Shown: piece by piece, positions 2,469 through 62,490 of the stretch
How positions within the stretch are numbered: position 1 is the first letter of the stretch
Layout: each line of letters starts with the position of its first letter
Origin: Vulcanimicrobiales bacterium
GTDB taxonomy: Bacteria > Vulcanimicrobiota > Vulcanimicrobiia > Vulcanimicrobiales > Vulcanimicrobiaceae
Length of the DNA stretch: 64,000 bases
NCBI GenBank assembly: GCA_038231455.1
Contig: JBBRLI010000001.1
Span: 388,988 to 452,987, forward strand
Direction: 5' to 3'
Notes under the pieces: model-generated
Told to the model about the DNA's origin: nothing
Seen by the model: only the letters and a program-made list of their open reading frames with translations
Database searches by the model: none
Translations under genes and position numbers: made by a program

Positions 2469-3806
2469 CTATCCCAAACCGGAAACCGTCATCTCGGCGA
2501 CGCGGAACGACGGCGAGACAATCGAGCTATCGAAGCGCAGGTCGTTTGCCACACGATCGATCGCCGCGAGCATGTCGATGAAGTTCCCAGCGATGGTAAA
2601 GCCGTCAACGGGGCCTGCAAGCGCACCATTCTCAATGAGCAGACCGCGCGCGCCGCGGCTGTAGCCGCCGCTTGCATTTTCCGTCGCGAAGCCGATCGTA
2701 TCGAGAACGAGAATCCCGCGCGGCGTCGCGGCGATGAGTTCTTCGAGCGACCCGTTTCCCGCGCGAAGATACAGATTGTTCACGCCGATCGCGCCGCCGC
2801 CACCCGCGTTGCCGGTGCTCGCAGCGCCAAGTTTGCGCCCGTAATACGTATCGTACAGATACGTCGTAAGAACACCCGCATCGAACACCGTCGTCGTCCG
2901 TGTGGCGACGCCTTCGGCATCGAACGGTGAGGTGCCGAGTCCACCGACAAGACGGCCGTCATCCACGATCGTCACGAGGTCCGAACCGATTTTTTCTCCG
3001 ACCTTGCCGACGAGGTACGAATTCCCCACCGCAACGTTCGATGCAGAGAACGCATTGAACAAATCGCCGAGCACGCTTGCAGCAACGTCCCGTTCGAACA
3101 CGATCGGCATCGTCTGCGTTGGCGGCGTACTCGCGCCGCACATCGCGATCGCCCGGCGCACGGCTTCGCTTGCGACAAACTCGGTCGAGTCGAGACTCGC
3201 ATACGAACGGCCGCCGGTTCCATAATACGAGATACGCTTGTGTTCGCCATCGCGCGCGACGGGGCTCGTTCCAAGCGAAGCGGATGTCGAGCGGAACGTG
3301 CCGCGGAAGCCGCGCGAATTGGCAAGCGCGGTTTCTCCCGAGCCGTCACCGATGCGCGAGCCGTTCGAATTGTCGATTCGCGCATCACCCGCGCGGATGC
3401 GCCGCTCGAGGTCGAGGATGTCGGCGACCTTCGCATCGGCCGTCCGCGCGCTCACATCGTCCGATGCGATCTTTAGCGGCAGTGCATCGAGATCGGTTGC
3501 GAACGCCTCGGGCAATCCACCAAATTCGTCTTCTGCAACGAATCGCGCCGCCTCGACCGCCCGTGCGCAAAGTTCCCGAATTCCCGCGGTCGTAAGATCG
3601 CTCGTCCCGAGTTGGGCGCGGCGCGTTCCGACAAAGACCCGCACCGAGAGCGAGCGCGAGCGCGACTGTTCGAGCTTCGTGATGGTCGCGTCGCGCGCTT
3701 CGGCGGAAAAACGGTCGGCAATCGATGCGGTTGCCTCGGCGTCGGTCGCTCCGGCCGCGATCGCGGCTTCAACCGCGGCGACGGCGAACGTAAGACTATC
3801 CGACAC
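2469..3806 (-). CDS. pmbA: PmbA/TldE family metalloprotease partner
   Basis: PFDAEG, GEKIGSDLVTIVDD and TIAGNF motifs, no HExxH, directly downstream of tldD. GTG start with GGAGG RBS. Confidence 0.88.
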   Translation of the reverse strand: MSDSLTFAVAAVEAAIAAGATDAEATASIADRFSAEARDATITKLEQSRSRSLSVRVFVGTRRAQLGTSDLTTAGIRELCARAVEAARFVAEDEFGGLPEAFATDLDALPLKIASDDVSARTADAKVADILDLERRIRAGDARIDNSNGSRIGDGSGETALANSRGFRGTFRSTSASLGTSPVARDGEHKRISYYGTGGRSYASLDSTEFVASEAVRRAIAMCGASTPPTQTMPIVFERDVAASVLGDLFNAFSASNVAVGNSYLVGKVGEKIGSDLVTIVDDGRLVGGLGTSPFDAEGVATRTTTVFDAGVLTTYLYDTYYGRKLGAASTGNAGGGGAIGVNNLYLRAGNGSLEELIAATPRGILVLDTIGFATENASGGYSRGARGLLIENGALAGPVDGFTIAGNFIDMLAAIDRVANDLRFDSSIVSPSFRVAEMTVSGLG

Positions 3807-5206: not shown

Positions 5207-6661
5207 TCATGATGCCGCGAGTGCATCGAGACTGCGGTCGATTCCATTTTCGATCGCTTCGGTTTCGGGGTTGGCCGCGTTGACGATGACGGCAAAGGCG
5301 ACGCGCCCATGGTGATCGGTACTCACGTACCCAACGAGCGCGTTGACGCCCGCGATGTGTCCGCTCTTGGCGCGCACCCGACCTAAGGCTTTGGAAAGGC
5401 GACGGTAGCGGACCGTTCCCTCAATTCCCGCACGCGGCAGGCCGCGAAGCAAATCGCCCGCGATCGCTTCGTGCTGAACGCGTGCGAGGAGCAGTGCGAA
5501 GGTGATCGGCGCGACGCGATTCGTCGGCGCAAGGCCGCTGCCATCGACAACATGCAGTCCGCTCGTATCGACGGCATCGCGAGCGAGCATCGCGCGTTCC
5601 ACGAGCGCGCCGCTCGCTTCGGTCGCGCTTCCGCGTTCGGCGCCGATCGTGCGCAGCAACTGTTCGGCGTAATGATTGTCGGAGGTCACGAGCATGCGCG
5701 CGATCAGGTCACGTAAGGGCGCGGAACGATGCAGCCACAGCGCGTGCGCGGCGAGCGGGGCGACGCCGACGCGGATGTCCGGCGCCGTTTCGATCCCGCG
5801 TGCGCGCAGCATGGAATGCAAAACGCGGCCCGCATACGCCGGCAAATCGACGACGGGGCGGTAGAACGTTTGCTCTGCGCCCACGTTGATTCTGCCGTCG
5901 ATCGTAAATGCATTACGTTTGGGATCGCGTTCGATCGTGAGCGAGGTTCCATAACCGGTGAGCGCGTGTCCGCTCACGCTTACGGCGTCGCCCGCCGGTT
6001 CGACTTTGACGCGCGCTGCCGCACCGGGACTAGTCGGTTGCAGCGTGATTGCAACGGTGCCCTCGTCGAGGGAGAGCGCGCTTGTCCCAGCGGCGTATCC
6101 GTACTGGAGATCGTCCGGGTCCCATTCGGGATTAATCTCGCGCTCTGCGAACGCACTCGCATCCACGATCGTGCGACCCAGCACGCGCACGATTCCGGCG
6201 CGCGCAAGCGCTCCGGCACCGCCGCGCAAATCGTCGCTTGTGAGTGATGGATCGCCGCTGCCGACGAAATACAGATCCTCGATCGAACCGTCGCGCGGCG
6301 CGCCGCTCGAGAGAAGCTCCGTCGGAAAACGAAACGAAGCCCCGAGCGTTTCAAGCGAGGCCGCGGCAACGAGCGTTTTGAGGGTGGACGCGGGAACGAA
6401 CGCCGTGCGCTCGTGTCGACCGTAGAGCAACGTCCCGTCGGATGCGACGATTGCAACGCCGGCTCCAGCAAGCGGCGCTGCCGTCTGCGCGAGCCGTTCG
6501 CGCAGCGCGCGGCGGTCGCGTTCGGACCACACCGGGCTTGGGCGCGCGTTCGATCGTGGAATCGCCGCGACGAATGGCGCGACCGTGCGCGGCGGATCGG
6601 CCCGACGAGCGCATGCAGCGACGACCACGCAGGCAAGCGCCGTGGCAAAGAGGCGCCTCAC
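5207..6661 (-). CDS. dacB: D-alanyl-D-alanine carboxypeptidase/endopeptidase (peptidase S13, PBP4), lipoprotein
   Basis: PASTLK (SxxK), SDN, KSG and DGSGL motifs, with lipobox-like VAAC. Confidence 0.9.
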   Translation of the reverse strand: MRRLFATALACVVVAACARRADPPRTVAPFVAAIPRSNARPSPVWSERDRRALRERLAQTAAPLAGAGVAIVASDGTLLYGRHERTAFVPASTLKTLVAAASLETLGASFRFPTELLSSGAPRDGSIEDLYFVGSGDPSLTSDDLRGGAGALARAGIVRVLGRTIVDASAFAEREINPEWDPDDLQYGYAAGTSALSLDEGTVAITLQPTSPGAAARVKVEPAGDAVSVSGHALTGYGTSLTIERDPKRNAFTIDGRINVGAEQTFYRPVVDLPAYAGRVLHSMLRARGIETAPDIRVGVAPLAAHALWLHRSAPLRDLIARMLVTSDNHYAEQLLRTIGAERGSATEASGALVERAMLARDAVDTSGLHVVDGSGLAPTNRVAPITFALLLARVQHEAIAGDLLRGLPRAGIEGTVRYRRLSKALGRVRAKSGHIAGVNALVGYVSTDHHGRVAFAVIVNAANPETEAIENGIDRSLDALAAS

Positions 6662-58330: not shown

Positions 58331-59229
58331 TCCTTCGCCTCACCGCCTCCTATCTCGGGATTTTTCTTGCGGTGCTCACCGCGCTGAGCGTCGGCGCGTA
58401 CGTGTACCTCGCAAATATCGCGCGCGAAACGGTCGAACCGCTCTTGCAATTGTCGATCGGTCAAGATGTCTTGCGTGCGACGACGAGCCATGTCGCGTTC
58501 ACGATTCTCTTGGCCGACATCCCGCTCGTCCTCGTGGTCGGTGTGGCGGCGTACGTGATGGCGACGGTCTCCGTTCGACCGCTGGCCGCGGCCCGGGAGC
58601 GCGAAGAACGCTTTACGGCTGAAGCCGCCCACGAACTGCGCACGCCGCTTGCGACCATCGCCTCGGTCGCGCAAGCGGCGCAAGGCGGGGCGGACCAAGA
58701 CGTTGCGCTCGCCAAGATCGCTCGCACCGCGATCGAGGCATCGACCCTTGTGGGTGACTTACTCCTATTGATGCGCGAATCGCCCGAAGGCACGCGATTG
58801 CACGAGCCGGTCGATTTGAACGCCATCGCGGGCTTTGCGGCAGCCGATGCGCGTACGCTCCACCCGGAACTCGAAGTGACGCATGCGGTGGGGATGAACG
58901 GCGCCTACGTCATCGGTGATGTGGGAGCACTCCGGCGTCTGGCGATCAATCTTGTTGCGAACGCCGTCGAACATGCGCGCTCGATCGTCGAAATCGAGGT
59001 CAAACGCGAAGGCGAGAACGTGATGCTCGCAGTTTCGGACGATGGCCCGGGTGTGGCGGATGCGGACCGCGAGCGTATCTTCGATCGATTCGTGAAAGCG
59101 AATCCGGCGGCGGGCGGCGCCGGCCTCGGCCTTGCGATTTGTCGCAAGATCGCGTCCACGCACGGGGGAACGATCGTGCTGGAAGATCGGGCGCGCTTCA
59201 TCGCCCGATTTCCAGCGGCACCAATCTAA
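58318..59229 (+). CDS. Sensor histidine kinase (two TM helices, short periplasmic loop)
   Basis: AAHELRTPL, NLVANA, DDGPG, FDRF and GAGLGL motifs. Start uncertain (ATT 58318 or GTG 58372). Confidence 0.88.
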   Translation: MNRVVLRLTASYLGIFLAVLTALSVGAYVYLANIARETVEPLLQLSIGQDVLRATTSHVAFTILLADIPLVLVVGVAAYVMATVSVRPLAAAREREERFTAEAAHELRTPLATIASVAQAAQGGADQDVALAKIARTAIEASTLVGDLLLLMRESPEGTRLHEPVDLNAIAGFAAADARTLHPELEVTHAVGMNGAYVIGDVGALRRLAINLVANAVEHARSIVEIEVKREGENVMLAVSDDGPGVADADRERIFDRFVKANPAAGGAGLGLAICRKIASTHGGTIVLEDRARFIARFPAAPI

Positions 59230-59948
59230 CGCGTCGTTCCATCGAGCGGACGTCTCGCCTCGGCTGCGCGTGAGGTGTCCGGACCAACGCCAAGCGCTGC
59301 CAGTAATGCCGAACGATCGACGGCCGGAATTCCGCCGCGCACTTGCGTTGCAACGATGTGCGAGGGCGATCCGCCAAGCACGACGATGCGGTTCGCAAGT
59401 TCGAGTGCTTCATCGATATCGTGCGTGACGAGAATCGCCGTTGCGCCGCTCACCGCGACGATCCGTGCGAGAGCCGCACGTAGTTCGATGCGTTTGAGCG
59501 CATCGAGTGCCGCGAGGGGTTCGTCGAGCAAGATGATTTCCGGCGCGCGAACGAGGGTGCGCGCAAGTGCCGCGCGCTGTGCCATGCCGCCCGAGAGGGC
59601 TTTGGGAAGCCGGCCCGCAGCCGCTTCGAGTCCCACAAGCGCAATGACCTGATCGACGCGCGCGCGTTCGGCATCGTCACGCGCCGCAAACGCGACGTTT
59701 TGACGCACGGTCAACCACGGAAAGAGCCGCGGCTCTTGGAAGACGTAGCCCACTTCACCGCTGACCGCAACGCTGCCGCCATCCGGCTGCGTGAGACCCG
59801 CGATGCAGCGTAGCAGCGTCGATTTGCCGCATCCGCTCGCACCGAGGATCGCCAGCGTTTCGCCGCGCGCGACGGTGAGATCGAGACCGGCGAATACCGG
59901 CGTGCCGTGATAGGTCTTGCGCAACCCCGCAAGTGTTACCGCGCTCAT
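59226..59948 (-). CDS. ssuB: Sulfonate ABC transporter ATP-binding protein
   Basis: GASGCGKST, VFQEPRLFPW, LSGGMAQR and LLDEP motifs. Confidence 0.85.
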   Translation of the reverse strand: MSAVTLAGLRKTYHGTPVFAGLDLTVARGETLAILGASGCGKSTLLRCIAGLTQPDGGSVAVSGEVGYVFQEPRLFPWLTVRQNVAFAARDDAERARVDQVIALVGLEAAAGRLPKALSGGMAQRAALARTLVRAPEIILLDEPLAALDALKRIELRAALARIVAVSGATAILVTHDIDEALELANRIVVLGGSPSHIVATQVRGGIPAVDRSALLAALGVGPDTSRAAEARRPLDGTTR

Positions 59949-60694
59949 GCCGGCACCGTATCGACCCAGCCGGTCAAGCGGCGTTCGATTGCGCGCATGC
60001 CGAGTTCCGAAAGTTTCCCGCACAGCGCAAAGAGCAGGATCGCGACGAGAATCTCATCGGTGCGCTGGACCTGCTGACCATCGGTGAGTAAGAACCCGAT
60101 GCCGCGGCTTGCCGCGAGCAACTCGGCAGCGACGAGGAAGAGCCATGCTTGTGTAAGGCCGATCCGCGCACCGACGAGCAGTTCGGGGAGCGTTGCGGGA
60201 ACGAGCACGCGTGCGATGAGCGGTAAACCGCGCACACCGAGCACTTGCGCGACTTCGATCAGCTTGCGGTCGATGCCGCGAATCGCGGCGTGCAGGCTAA
60301 CGTAAATCGGAAAAAACGCGCCGATTGCGACGAGCGTAATTTTCGCCGATTCGCCGATGCCAAGCCAGAGTAAAATAAGCGGCACCCACGCGAGACTCGG
60401 GACTGCGCGAATCGCCTGAAGCGTCGGATCGACAGCCCGTTCCACAACGCGCGAACTCCCGACGAGCGCGCCGAGAACCACCGCGAGCGCCAGCGCAATC
60501 GCGAAACCCGCAAAGACGCGCGCGATGCTGGCGCCGAGATCGCGCGCGAGTTCGCCCGGCACCGCAAGATCGACGAGTTCGGCGATCACCGCTTGCGGCG
60601 ATGCGAGCTGATACGGCTTGAGCACGCCGCTCGCGGTGCTGCCGAACCAAGCTGCAAGCAGCGAGAGCGGAAGCAACAACCTAACCACGGGCAA
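59945..60694 (-). CDS. ssuC: Sulfonate ABC transporter permease
   Basis: PSLAWVPL..LWLGIGE and LVAAELL motifs. Confidence 0.85.
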   Translation of the reverse strand: MPVVRLLLPLSLLAAWFGSTASGVLKPYQLASPQAVIAELVDLAVPGELARDLGASIARVFAGFAIALALAVVLGALVGSSRVVERAVDPTLQAIRAVPSLAWVPLILLWLGIGESAKITLVAIGAFFPIYVSLHAAIRGIDRKLIEVAQVLGVRGLPLIARVLVPATLPELLVGARIGLTQAWLFLVAAELLAASRGIGFLLTDGQQVQRTDEILVAILLFALCGKLSELGMRAIERRLTGWVDTVPA

Positions 60695-61664
60695 GGTGTT
60701 TTGCCGGCTGCGCGTCGATCAGCGATCCCAGCGCCCGCTCGAGATCGGTGCCCGGCTGCGTGAGGCGTTCTGCCCGCACGATATCGACCACGCCCGCGAC
60801 GGCATCGCGGAACGCCGCGCCCGGAACCGGATCGGGATACTGCGTGCGATCCCGCACTTCAACCGTTGCAACGCGGAGTTCGAGTTTCGATGCCTCGGCG
60901 AGGATTTTCGCCGTCTCATCGGGATGCGCGATGGCATACGCGCGGGCACGCTGGTACTGATCGAGTACGACGCCGACGAGATCGGGATGTTCGGCGAGAA
61001 AATCTTCGCGCGTGTTCAGTGCGCCGAACGTATTGAAGTTCACGTTGCGGTACAGCAGTTTGGAACCCGCGTCGAGTTCGGATGCCGCCATGTGCGGATC
61101 GAGACCGGCCCACGCATCGACGTTGCCCCGTTCGAGTGCGGCGCGACCATCCGGATGCTGCAGGTCGACGATCTCGACATCGGCTTGATCGAGACCGTTC
61201 GCACGCAGCGAGCGGATCAGGAAGAACCACGGATCGGTCCCACGCGTCGCGGCAATCTTCTTGCCTTGAAGATCTTTAACGGATTTTAGCGGGGAATTCT
61301 TGCCGATCACGATCGCCGTCCATTCCGGACGCGAATACAAGAACACCGTTTTGATCGGCGAGCCATTGGCGCGCGCGAGAAACGCGGCACTGCCGGCAGT
61401 CGAGCCGAATTGAACGGCGTTTGCGCCGAGGAAACTATTGGCTTTATTCGAGCCAAGCGAGAGCACCCAATTTACTTTTGTGCCGCGCCTGCCGAGCGCT
61501 TCCTCAAGCCAGCCTTTTTCTTTGAGAACTAAACTCACGGGGTTGTAATACGCATAATCGACACCAATGGAGTCGACGGCGGCCGCAAACGAGCGACTTG
61601 GGTAGAGGGCGGCCGCAGCGGCGGCGCCGGCTGCGGTCAGGAACGAACGACGATCGAGTGACAA
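60681..61664 (-). CDS. ssuA: Aliphatic sulfonate ABC transporter substrate-binding protein (Tat signal)
   Basis: DRRSFL Tat motif, DYAYYNP, GSNKA, ATRGTDP and WAGLDP. TTG start with AAGGAG RBS. Confidence 0.88.
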   Translation of the reverse strand: MSLDRRSFLTAAGAAAAAALYPSRSFAAAVDSIGVDYAYYNPVSLVLKEKGWLEEALGRRGTKVNWVLSLGSNKANSFLGANAVQFGSTAGSAAFLARANGSPIKTVFLYSRPEWTAIVIGKNSPLKSVKDLQGKKIAATRGTDPWFFLIRSLRANGLDQADVEIVDLQHPDGRAALERGNVDAWAGLDPHMAASELDAGSKLLYRNVNFNTFGALNTREDFLAEHPDLVGVVLDQYQRARAYAIAHPDETAKILAEASKLELRVATVEVRDRTQYPDPVPGAAFRDAVAGVVDIVRAERLTQPGTDLERALGSLIDAQPAKHLARG

Positions 61665-61699
61665 TGTAGTCTCCTTGGTGAGAGAGGAAGACGGGAAAC

Positions 61700-61731
61700 A
61701 AAAAAGCCCCCGCCGAGATCGGCGCGGGCTT
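61700..61731 (-). terminator. Attenuator terminator in the ssuA leader
   Basis: Minus strand agcccgcgccg-atct-cggcgggggc followed by tttttt, 36 nt before the ssuA start. Confidence 0.8.
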
Positions 61732-61771
61732 CACAGTGTGACGGTGGGACCGTCAGGCCAATGTGAATTCG

Positions 61772-61831
61772 CTACCGATCCCCTGTGGGGCGGCACATAA
61801 TACACATCGTGCAGCAAACGGTAACGGACAT
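61772..61831 (-). CDS. Cys/Met-rich leader peptide MSVTVCCTMCIMCRPTGDR
   Basis: 19 aa with 4 Cys and 3 Met. TGcTAGGCT extended -10 lies 7 nt before the ATG. Precedes the terminator and ssuA. Confidence 0.75.
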   Translation of the reverse strand: MSVTVCCTMCIMCRPTGDR

Positions 61832-61864
61832 CGGCCCTAGCCTAGCATCCGGCCGGGGGTCACG

Positions 61865-62257
61865 TCAACTGGCAAAGATCGACTGCACAGAATATTTGGT
61901 TATCTGCGGGTCGACGGTGACGAGCGTTAAGCTCTCGGCGATCCCCTGTGCAATCAGCAACCGATCGAACGGATCGCGATGGAGCATCGGCAACTGCGCA
62001 ACGCCGGCTGCATGAACGAAACTAATATCGAGCGGCGTAATCCGCAGTCGCTTACAGCGAGATTCGGCGAATGCGCCGGGCTCCATCGGTAGGAGGATCT
62101 TCCCGAGCGAATACTTGATCGAGAGTTCCCAAGCCGATGCAGCCGAGAGAAAGACAGCATTGTCCGGATTGCGAATCGTTTGCAATACGTCGGTTTTCAA
62201 ACGTTCCGGCGTTTGCGTTAGCCAGAGAAAAACGTGCGTATCGAGGAGCAGCCTCAA
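61865..62257 (-). CDS. vapC: PIN-domain toxin (VapC family)
   Basis: LLLDTHVFLW, SAASAWE and HRDPFDRLL motifs. Confidence 0.92.
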   Translation of the reverse strand: MRLLLDTHVFLWLTQTPERLKTDVLQTIRNPDNAVFLSAASAWELSIKYSLGKILLPMEPGAFAESRCKRLRITPLDISFVHAAGVAQLPMLHRDPFDRLLIAQGIAESLTLVTVDPQITKYSVQSIFAS

Positions 62258-62490
62258 TCGCGTCCCTCGAAATCCGCGAGCATTTCATCGGAGAGTGGCG
62301 CGTCGAAGTCGTCGGGGACTACAAAGAGACCACGGTCAAAACCGACCTCACGTAACCCCGCCTGCACGATTGGGAGGAGACGAACCACCGGCTTTCCATC
62401 GCGAGCGATCACGACGTCTTCCCCGTTGAGTGCGGACTCGATTAGAAATGAAAGCTTAGCTTTTGCTTCGGCAACGTCTAATTTGACCAC
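62254..62490 (-). CDS. Phd/YefM family antitoxin
   Basis: EAKAKLS.LI....GEDVVIARDGKPVVRL and DDFDAPL. 4-nt overlap with vapC. Confidence 0.9.
   Translation of the reverse strand: MVKLDVAEAKAKLSFLIESALNGEDVVIARDGKPVVRLLPIVQAGLREVGFDRGLFVVPDDFDAPLSDEMLADFEGRD

Follow-up and report, generated by a model that had tools for sequence, protein, structure and literature searches.

The window analysed here is a stretch of 64,000 nucleotides from the genome of a Vulcanimicrobiales bacterium (assembly GCA_038231455.1, contig JBBRLI010000001.1, positions 388,988 to 452,987), and the element in question is the leader region that lies between a PIN-domain gene and ssuA and is read on the minus strand (Table 1). 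This region contains a promoter, a short upstream open reading frame (uORF) dense in Cys and Met codons, and a GC-rich hairpin with six U residues, all of which had been proposed in a preliminary description made from the sequence letters; each was found on the minus strand at the position given there. The genes downstream encode an SsuA-family binding protein, a permease and an ATPase according to Pfam and NCBIfam, so that the earlier assignment as ssuACB holds; the ssuA product scores 224.8 bits against NCBIfam TIGR01728 SsuA_fam (cutoff 163.5) and has a twin-arginine-like N-terminus. As argued below from the sequence of this leader and of its relatives, the element very probably controls the ssuACB sulfonate-uptake operon by ribosome-mediated (leader-peptide) transcription attenuation.

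Table 1. Features of the ssuA leader and its surroundings (positions within the window; SD, Shine-Dalgarno)
Feature	Position	Strand	Sequence or remark
Phd/YefM-like ORF	62254-62490	minus	first ORF of a vapBC-like pair (61865-62490)
PIN-domain ORF	61865-62257	minus	second ORF of the vapBC-like pair
-35 hexamer	61868-61863	minus	TTGACG; contains the TGA stop of the upstream PIN-domain gene
Promoter spacer		minus	18 nt between -35 and extended -10
Extended -10 box	61847-61839	minus	TGcTAGGCT; TG 61847-61846, hexamer TAGGCT 61844-61839
Interval between -10 box and uORF ATG		minus	AGGGCCG, 7 nt
Leader ORF (uORF)	61831-61772	minus	MSVTVCCTMCIMCRPTGDR; ATG at 61831; 19 codons + TAG (61774-61772)
Regulatory codon run, codons 6-13	61816-61793	minus	Cys6, Cys7, Met9, Cys10, Met12, Cys13
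Segment 1, anti-antiterminator strand	61795-61787	minus	UGCCGCCCC; Cys13 codon and next two codons; pairs with GGGG..CGGUA of segment 2
Segment 1:2 hairpin	61795-61770	minus	-11.2 kcal/mol
Segment 2, antiterminator 5' strand	61783-61770	minus	GGGGAUCGGUAGCG; covers codons 17-19 and stop codon
Antiterminator	61783-61715	minus	-33.8 kcal/mol
Helix inside antiterminator	61767-61762 / 61735-61730	minus	UUCACA/UGUGAA
Hairpin inside antiterminator	61755-61739	minus	UGACGGU-CCC-ACCGUCA
Segment 3	61732-61715	minus	terminator 5' arm 61732-61720, loop 61719-61716, first 3'-arm base 61715
Antiterminator 3' strand	61726-61715	minus	bases of segment 3
Terminator hairpin	61732-61703	minus	-23.4 kcal/mol; overlaps the U6 tract
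Segment 4	61715-61696	minus	terminator 3' arm 61715-61703, U6 61705-61700, then GUUU
Pyrimidine-rich stretch		minus	between terminator and SD site
SD site	61676-61671	minus	AAGGAG
ssuA start codon	61664-61662	minus	TTG
ssuA	60681-61664	minus	327 residues; Pfam NMT1
ssuC-like permease	59945-60694	minus	Pfam BPD_transp_1
ssuB-like ATPase	59226-60023	minus	Pfam ABC_tran
Operon ssuA-ssuC-ssuB	59226-61664	minus	

Relatives of the locus were collected by searching an SsuA alignment against GTDB contigs, one genome per species, which yielded 61 loci; 60 of these retain DNA upstream of ssuA (L056 is cut), and the closest SsuA relatives (86-95% identity, P0002-P0010, metagenome sources) lie outside this set. 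A Cys/Met-dense short ORF is present ~130-200 nt upstream of ssuA in 46 of the 60 loci, 42 of them recognized by a regular expression for promoter plus ORF and four further ones (L027, L039, L059, L061) by eye with confirmation by translation. These 46 loci and the window constitute the 47 leaders discussed below. All 47 have a TAnnnT hexamer shortly (7-11 nt) before the first in-frame start codon, in most cases with an upstream TG, and a strong, T-rich-tailed hairpin located 30-52 nt ahead of the ssuA start codon. A TTGAC-like hexamer 17-18 nt from the -10 was matched by the regular expression in 42 of the 60 loci and in the window. Because the promoter-uORF-terminator layout is kept in 46 of the 60 related loci, a chance origin is excluded. 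L027, L039 and L061 lack a TTGAC -35 and have a TG-extended -10 box 7 nt before ATG; in these loci a terminator-like hairpin of the upstream gene precedes the extended -10, ~20-45 nt upstream of the uORF.

The surroundings of the leader are constant on one side and varied on the other. ssuC lies downstream of ssuA in 44 of the 46 leader-bearing loci and ssuB in 43, the exceptions being contig-end cuts. On the upstream side, the adjacent ORFs lie on either strand and come from many unrelated families, including pyridoxamine-phosphate oxidase, PPDK, class I tRNA synthetase, NUDIX, ScpA, glutamine synthetase and GGT (Pfam matches for 24 of 44 ORFs scanned; a PIN domain in none). The leader element therefore travels with ssuA. 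In the window, the vapBC-like pair lies directly upstream on the same strand (its Phd/YefM-like ORF scores 29.7 bits in Pfam, just below the cutoff of 29.8), and since no terminator intervenes between this pair and the uORF, the attenuator terminator would also end vapBC read-through. The PIN gene ends 135 nt upstream on the same strand, and with no other terminator in between, the hairpin might be taken as a mere terminator of the pair and the short ORF as a chance frame; this is hardly credible, because related loci keep promoter, uORF and terminator before ssuA with unrelated upstream genes on either strand and no PIN gene.

Leader-bearing loci come from uncultured organisms and are mostly in metagenome-assembled genomes (MAGs) titled Vulcanimicrobiota, Eremiobacteraeota, Elarobacter, Velthaea or Baltobacteraceae, and a few are titled Acidoferrum, Acidiferrales, Alphaproteobacteria, Limnocylindria or Armatimonadota. 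The leader is absent from 14 of the 60 loci, namely L001 (Vulcanimicrobiota), L008 (Binatia), and 12 more distant loci (50-58% SsuA identity) titled Thermomicrobium, Chloroflexota, Dehalococcoidia, HR26/HR27, Armatimonadetes MAG, beta-proteobacterium and others. One leader, termed B-type (MSNLHIMCHMC...), is nearly identical across L024-L028, L030, L031, L033, L038, L039, L060 and L061, which sit in MAGs titled Eremiobacteraeota, Acidoferrum, Acidiferrales and Alphaproteobacteria. Such near-identity across titles suggests either misbinned or mislabelled MAGs, or that leader and ssuACB were recently transferred as one unit. In addition, L043 (2535-2795), L045, L046 and L052 (Thermomicrobium, HR27, HR26) have no leader and share a common ORF end ...PPCPAMVGVFAFWPRICECPRSA ~200-300 nt upstream of ssuA, which has no match in Rfam.

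The short ORF is conserved as a frame rich in Cys and Met codons, and not in its peptide sequence. In the window it holds four Cys and two internal Met codons in 19 codons. The encoded peptides, 41 distinct ones among the 47 leaders and 19-27 residues long, fall into four classes that are not alignable as proteins (...CLMAMCICCLPxGDRRASA; MSNLHIMCHMC...; MTSRAMMSMCMAMCCTSRCR; and a window-like set, e.g., MTALMCCCCCIMCLPTGAGAALH). With the start codon excluded, Cys accounts for 148 of 940 residues (15.7%) and Met for 103 (11.0%), together 27% of the frame, compared with 0.3% and 0.6% in four neighbouring proteins of the window (1216 residues). ATG occurs 103 times in this frame vs 0 and 1 times in the other two, and TGY (Y, pyrimidine) 148, 87 and 1 times, the +1 count being due to ATG-TGY dipeptides; both Cys codons are in use (TGC 85, TGT 63). 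Only three features are retained: the run of Cys and Met codons, the reading frame, and those residues that the antiterminator strand encodes. The N-terminal residues before the run vary freely, which fits a sensor ORF rather than a functional peptide. Cys-rich small proteins do exist, and the ORF is kept in 46 of 60 loci, so that a functional micropeptide (e.g., metal- or redox-active), co-transcribed with or separate from ssuACB and followed by an ordinary terminator, has to be considered. We give this very little credence, because the peptide is unconserved outside the Cys/Met codons and the antiterminator-encoded residues, five representative peptides have no Pfam match, and the 30-52 nt that separate the terminator from ssuA hold no promoter for this gene; the terminator-to-SD gap (38 nt) is too short for one.

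The most frequent distances from the -10 to the start codon are 10 nt (16 leaders), 7 nt (15, the window among them) and 9 nt (10); five leaders have 11 nt and one has 8 nt. Of the 47 ORFs, 29 open with ATG and 18 with GTG. As this interval leaves no room for an SD site, the uORF mRNA is probably leaderless or near-leaderless (0-4 nt), in line with the leaderless start proposed in the preliminary description.

The 47 leaders were aligned with MAFFT (alignment A2), and slid partner strands and 500 shuffles served as controls. The terminator, seen earlier in the window as a GC hairpin with U6, has an equivalent in every leader; 95.1% of its cells on A2 are paired, compared with 43-63% for slid strands, compensatory changes occur at 7 of 13 pairs, and none of the 500 shuffles reaches the observed values.

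The competing structure, the antiterminator, had been drawn as a 12-bp pairing of 61782-61770 with 61726-61715 that encloses two further helices. ViennaRNA predicts the same pairing (9 bp with two G-U, a bulged A, then 3 bp) once the terminator 3' arm is omitted, and both enclosed helices, ttcaca/tgtgaa and tgacggt/accgtca, are in the fold; the uORF stop codon lies inside the 5' strand (segment 2). For its counting on A2, the structure was derived from each sequence's own ribosome-masked fold. By this procedure 74.8% of cells are paired vs 32-46% for slid strands (82.8% in the outer helix), and the covariation score is 0.168 vs 0.03-0.08, a value that 0 of 500 shuffles reach, with some favourable bias expected because the structure was taken from the same sequences. 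An independent test, RNAalifold on 23 A-subfamily sequences cut at the terminator loop, predicts the same helix. In this set uORF column 17 and terminator-loop column 84 switch together (A-U 10, G-C 7, G-U 1, unpaired 5), and three of the seven pairs of the A-subfamily helix use loop bases outside the terminator stem. As read from the alignment, the co-change of columns 17 and 84 is the cleanest covariation evidence and is independent of the structure-derivation step. The parts of the leader, their conservation, and the covariation of both competing helices are thus computed results. The search for related Cys-rich uORFs with covarying stems that the preliminary description had suggested turned out positive, in 46 of 60 loci and for terminator and antiterminator alike.

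Other comparisons are less sharp. Equivalents of the inner helices are predicted in L005, L024 and L029; on A2 the columns of these helices are poorly aligned by MAFFT and 56-71% paired. On the whole of A2, RNAalifold returns part of the terminator and a few long-range pairs, the inner helices being misaligned between subfamilies. The mean duplex energy of the uORF tail with cognate terminator arms is -19.86 kcal/mol and that with non-cognate arms -17.61 kcal/mol, which is weak support because all arms share a GC-rich core; in L002 the duplex picked involves a non-homologous strand.

A further predicted pairing, between segments 1 and 2, is absent from the preliminary description and makes the design a four-segment one. 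In pre-terminator transcripts segment 2 is predicted to pair with upstream sequence at a probability (P) above 0.5 in 42 of the 47 leaders, and 78.3% of the segment 1:2 cells on A2 are paired vs 37-58% for slid strands. At equilibrium, segment 3 outcompetes this pairing.

The dependence of the fold on ribosome position was assessed mainly with transcripts cut at the terminator loop, which correspond to the RNA present at the decision, and with a mask for the ribosome. In 43 of the 47 leaders, a ribosome placed on the Cys/Met codons leaves the terminator 5' arm more often paired than one placed on the stop codon (means 0.76 vs 0.55). In the window, the antiterminator is the predicted fold with the ribosome at Cys6, Cys7 or Cys10, and is abolished with the ribosome on the stop codon; in these cut transcripts, constrained folding of the two states gives what the preliminary description had anticipated. 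In 31 of the 47 leaders, 9-14 nt separate the last Cys codon from the beginning of segment 2, roughly where a stalled ribosome would have its 3' (downstream) edge.

The stability of the leader raises the question of a ligand. The full leader of the window folds at -73.7 kcal/mol (z = -3.09; 0 of 200 shuffles equally stable), there are conserved helices between uORF and terminator, and GAUCGGCG is conserved at the nucleotide level, all of which a riboswitch-like leader RNA, binding a metabolite or a protein and controlling the terminator with the short ORF as an incidental frame, would explain. Rfam 15 scans covered the window leader, 14 leader-bearing loci and nine loci without leader. No family, SAM, SAH, T-box and amino-acid leaders included, reached its gathering score in the window leader or the 14 related loci. 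The best score for the window leader is 19.6 bits vs a gathering score of 55, and the models of the Leu, Thr and rnk leaders match it at E = 1.4-4.8 and under half of their gathering scores; the best hits (E-values ~1) are leader or terminator look-alikes. In addition, conservation is phased to the one frame that holds the ATG codons, opens 7-11 nt after the -10 and is rich in Cys and Met, and the two competing helices account for the conserved nucleotides; a riboswitch-like control is therefore very unlikely. At the ssuA leaders of the nine loci without the element, no known Rfam family was found. One of the loci, L050 (Armatimonadetes MAG), has tandem c-di-GMP-I-GGC riboswitch aptamers (5848-5933 and 6084-6169, minus strand; 71.6 and 69.4 bits, gathering score 59) downstream of its ssu genes.

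An alternative closer to the attenuator is a translational one of the mycobacterial type, in which stalling at the Cys tract would unmask the ssuA ribosome-binding site and the hairpin with its U tract would not be the regulated step. Leaderless poly-Cys short ORFs act in this way in Mycobacterium smegmatis, according to the available text of Canestrari et al. (10.1101/834739). In the RNAalifold structure of A2, uORF columns 48-51 (UGCU of Cys codons) pair with the SD region and the C/U tract with the SD itself; conservation across leaders is also strong between terminator and SD. However, those SD pairings are without compensatory change save in one sequence each at two pairs, the sole contact suggested between Cys tract and SD is an invariant 4 bp, and in the minimum free energy fold of the window the SD is within a small local hairpin and the Cys tract is not its partner. 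A strong, covarying terminator with a T-rich tail in all 47 leaders, together with a competing helix that uses terminator-loop bases, likewise speaks against this alternative, which we regard as improbable; sequestration of the SD in a leader that has no terminator, as in mycobacteria, is not what the ssuA leader presents. The stretch at 61677-61699 (minus strand; A2 columns ~193-222) consists of a C/U-rich tract and then CAGGAGGC and is strongly conserved in the 47 leaders, as is the SD region; it may represent a second, translational layer or just a strong ribosome-binding region.

Transcription attenuation, the reading given in the preliminary description, is supported by an antiterminator that covaries even at loop bases outside the terminator stem, a terminator in every leader, and the uORF in 46 of 60 loci. 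From the sequence we infer the start of transcription, the translation of the leader, the stalling and the response to sulfur, in the following scheme. Transcription would start at or a few bases from the uORF start codon, so that a 70S ribosome would load without an SD site. When Cys-tRNA, and probably Met-tRNA, is charged, the ribosome would reach the stop codon inside segment 2 and cover this segment as RNA polymerase transcribes segments 3 and 4; these would then form the terminator (3:4), and the transcript would end at ~61700. When sulfur amino acids are scarce, the ribosome would stall at codons 6-13 and cover segment 1 but not segment 2, which would pair with the 5' arm and loop of the terminator (segment 3), so that no terminator would form and ssuACB would be transcribed. 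The signal sensed is probably the charging of Cys-tRNA and of Met-tRNA too, Met being included because internal Met codons are near-universal (at least two in 40 of the 41 distinct peptides).

Several observations weigh against this scheme. For full-length leaders at equilibrium, the terminator is the predicted structure in 45 of 47 naked RNAs and in 46 of 47 when a ribosome occupies the stop codon, and a stall brings the terminator below P = 0.5 in only 18 of the 47 full leaders, the window included. Equilibrium folding of the full leader alone cannot show switching because the terminator dominates in most leaders, and for the same reason the switch must be kinetic (co-transcriptional), as in other attenuators. 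Naked cut transcripts also form the antiterminator (mean 0.73), and on this modelling an untranslated leader might give read-through rather than termination. The duplexes of uORF tail and terminator arms have a median z of -1.87 vs shuffles, and the cognate terminator is rarely the best partner; covariation of the segment 1:2 helix is weak (3 of 9 pairs, fewer than in shuffles). U tracts are interrupted in many A-subfamily leaders, and 13 B-subfamily leaders hold merely two Cys and two internal Met codons. Strict leaderlessness, argued from spacing, is the part of the leaderless claim that is unproven, as the spacing is 8-11 nt in 32 of the 47 leaders and the start codon is GTG in 18. Finally, the close relative L001 keeps a terminator and has no Cys/Met uORF. 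This locus (71% SsuA identity, Vulcanimicrobiota MAG; 2740-3000) has a promoter TTGACC-17 nt-TACGGT and a short hairpin with T7 before ssuA, and by its sequence the leader appears to be a different or degenerate one.

The ssuA leader provides a concrete, testable regulatory mechanism in the Eremiobacterota (WPS-2), a phylum with, to our knowledge, very few cultured members and nothing known of its gene regulation. It would extend leader-peptide attenuation to sulfur scavenging, to a transporter as opposed to a biosynthetic operon, and to a mixed Cys and Met sensor. For annotation, it reveals a family of 19-27-codon ORFs that gene callers miss, and the 47 leaders are a ready seed alignment for a new RNA or leader family. 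Elsewhere, sulfur scavenging is known to be under protein regulators of the CysB, Cbl or SsuR type. A bolder proposal, which we hold only tentatively and consider rather unlikely, is that in Eremiobacterota a leaderless four-segment attenuator reads Cys- and Met-tRNA charging together as a direct read-out of total sulfur amino-acid supply, acts as the primary sulfur-scavenging switch in place of such regulators, and, with the same leader heading other sulfur genes, forms a phylum-wide regulon run by ribosomes. If this held, the ssuA leader would be the first attenuator working through a terminator to be shown on a transporter for nutrient uptake, and the first to respond to two sulfur amino acids together. 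No second dense Cys/Met short ORF with a promoter-like layout was found in the 64-kb window or in the flanks of the 61 loci.

Among known systems, the leaders of ilv operons sense more than one amino acid. The classical leader-peptide attenuators of Proteobacteria (trp, his, leu, thr, ilv), whose mechanism is outlined in the available parts of 10.1101/834739 and PMC4007540, resemble the ssuA leader in that codons for the sensed amino acid are concentrated in a short ORF, behind which lie a mutually exclusive antiterminator and intrinsic terminator, with ribosome position deciding between them, and their four-segment layout (1:2, 2:3, 3:4) matches that predicted for the ssuA leader. In contrast to these systems, the codons of the ssuA leader are Cys and Met, its target is an uptake transporter for a sulfur source and not a biosynthetic operon, and its stop codon lies inside the antiterminator 5' strand (in relatives, beyond it), not before segment 2.

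The leaderless poly-Cys short ORFs of M. smegmatis, termed the Cys ribulon, are experimentally shown to act on translation; as far as the available text of the study tells, a repressive structure sequesters the SD, and termination was shown not to be involved (Canestrari et al., 10.1101/834739). This text bears out the statement of the preliminary description that Cys-rich leaderless regulatory ORFs exist in mycobacteria. Both systems have a short ORF with consecutive Cys codons, leaderless in mycobacteria and probably so in the ssuA leader, before sulfur or cysteine operons, and in both, stalling relieves (in the ssuA leader, would relieve) a repressive RNA structure, whereas the ssuA leaders have a covarying terminator and antiterminator, interleaved Met codons, and a different phylum. 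The ssuA leader connects the mycobacterial leaderless sensors, which work on translation, to attenuators of the classical terminator type. Neither sulfonate nor ssu occurs as a word in the main text of that study as available, the operon list of its Table 1 apart.

Terminator-type Cys leaders have been predicted before cysS. According to the accessible portions of the respective reports, the uORFC-8-2 motif of Rhodobacterales is a predicted two-Cys uORF with a terminator (Brewer et al., PMC8632094), and the cysS leader of Deinococcus deserti is leaderless, has 10 residues with 2 Cys, and starts exactly at the mapped transcription start site (de Groot et al., PMC4007540, which lists 14 leaders in supplementary table S9). 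These share with the ssuA leader a predicted Cys-codon leader peptide and a downstream terminator; they differ in controlling the gene of Cys-tRNA synthetase by predicted attenuation, in having two Cys codons with no Met run mentioned in those portions, and in belonging to unrelated lineages. Candidate Cys leader peptides of Actinobacteria likewise have Cys runs before sulfur-metabolism operons, and differ in being reported, in the part of the source available, without terminators (PMC1262725). In bacilli, an attenuator with a premature terminator precedes a sulfonate transporter; its mechanism is not described in the available text of PMC2965389, which does not present it as a leader peptide. 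Literature searches that did not extend to the supplements of PMC4007540 and PMC2965389 or to Table 1 of 10.1101/834739 returned no leader peptide with Cys and Met codons ahead of ssuA or a sulfonate transporter, and none from Eremiobacterota. The novelty presumed in the preliminary description probably stands for a Cys and Met attenuator on a sulfonate transporter and does not stand for terminator-type Cys leaders as such, in view of the cysS predictions as available. What is new in the ssuA leader is its Cys plus Met codon set, its target in the uptake of an alternative sulfur source, the joining of a probably leaderless start to an intrinsic terminator, and its phylum; the regulatory logic is one already known from these systems.

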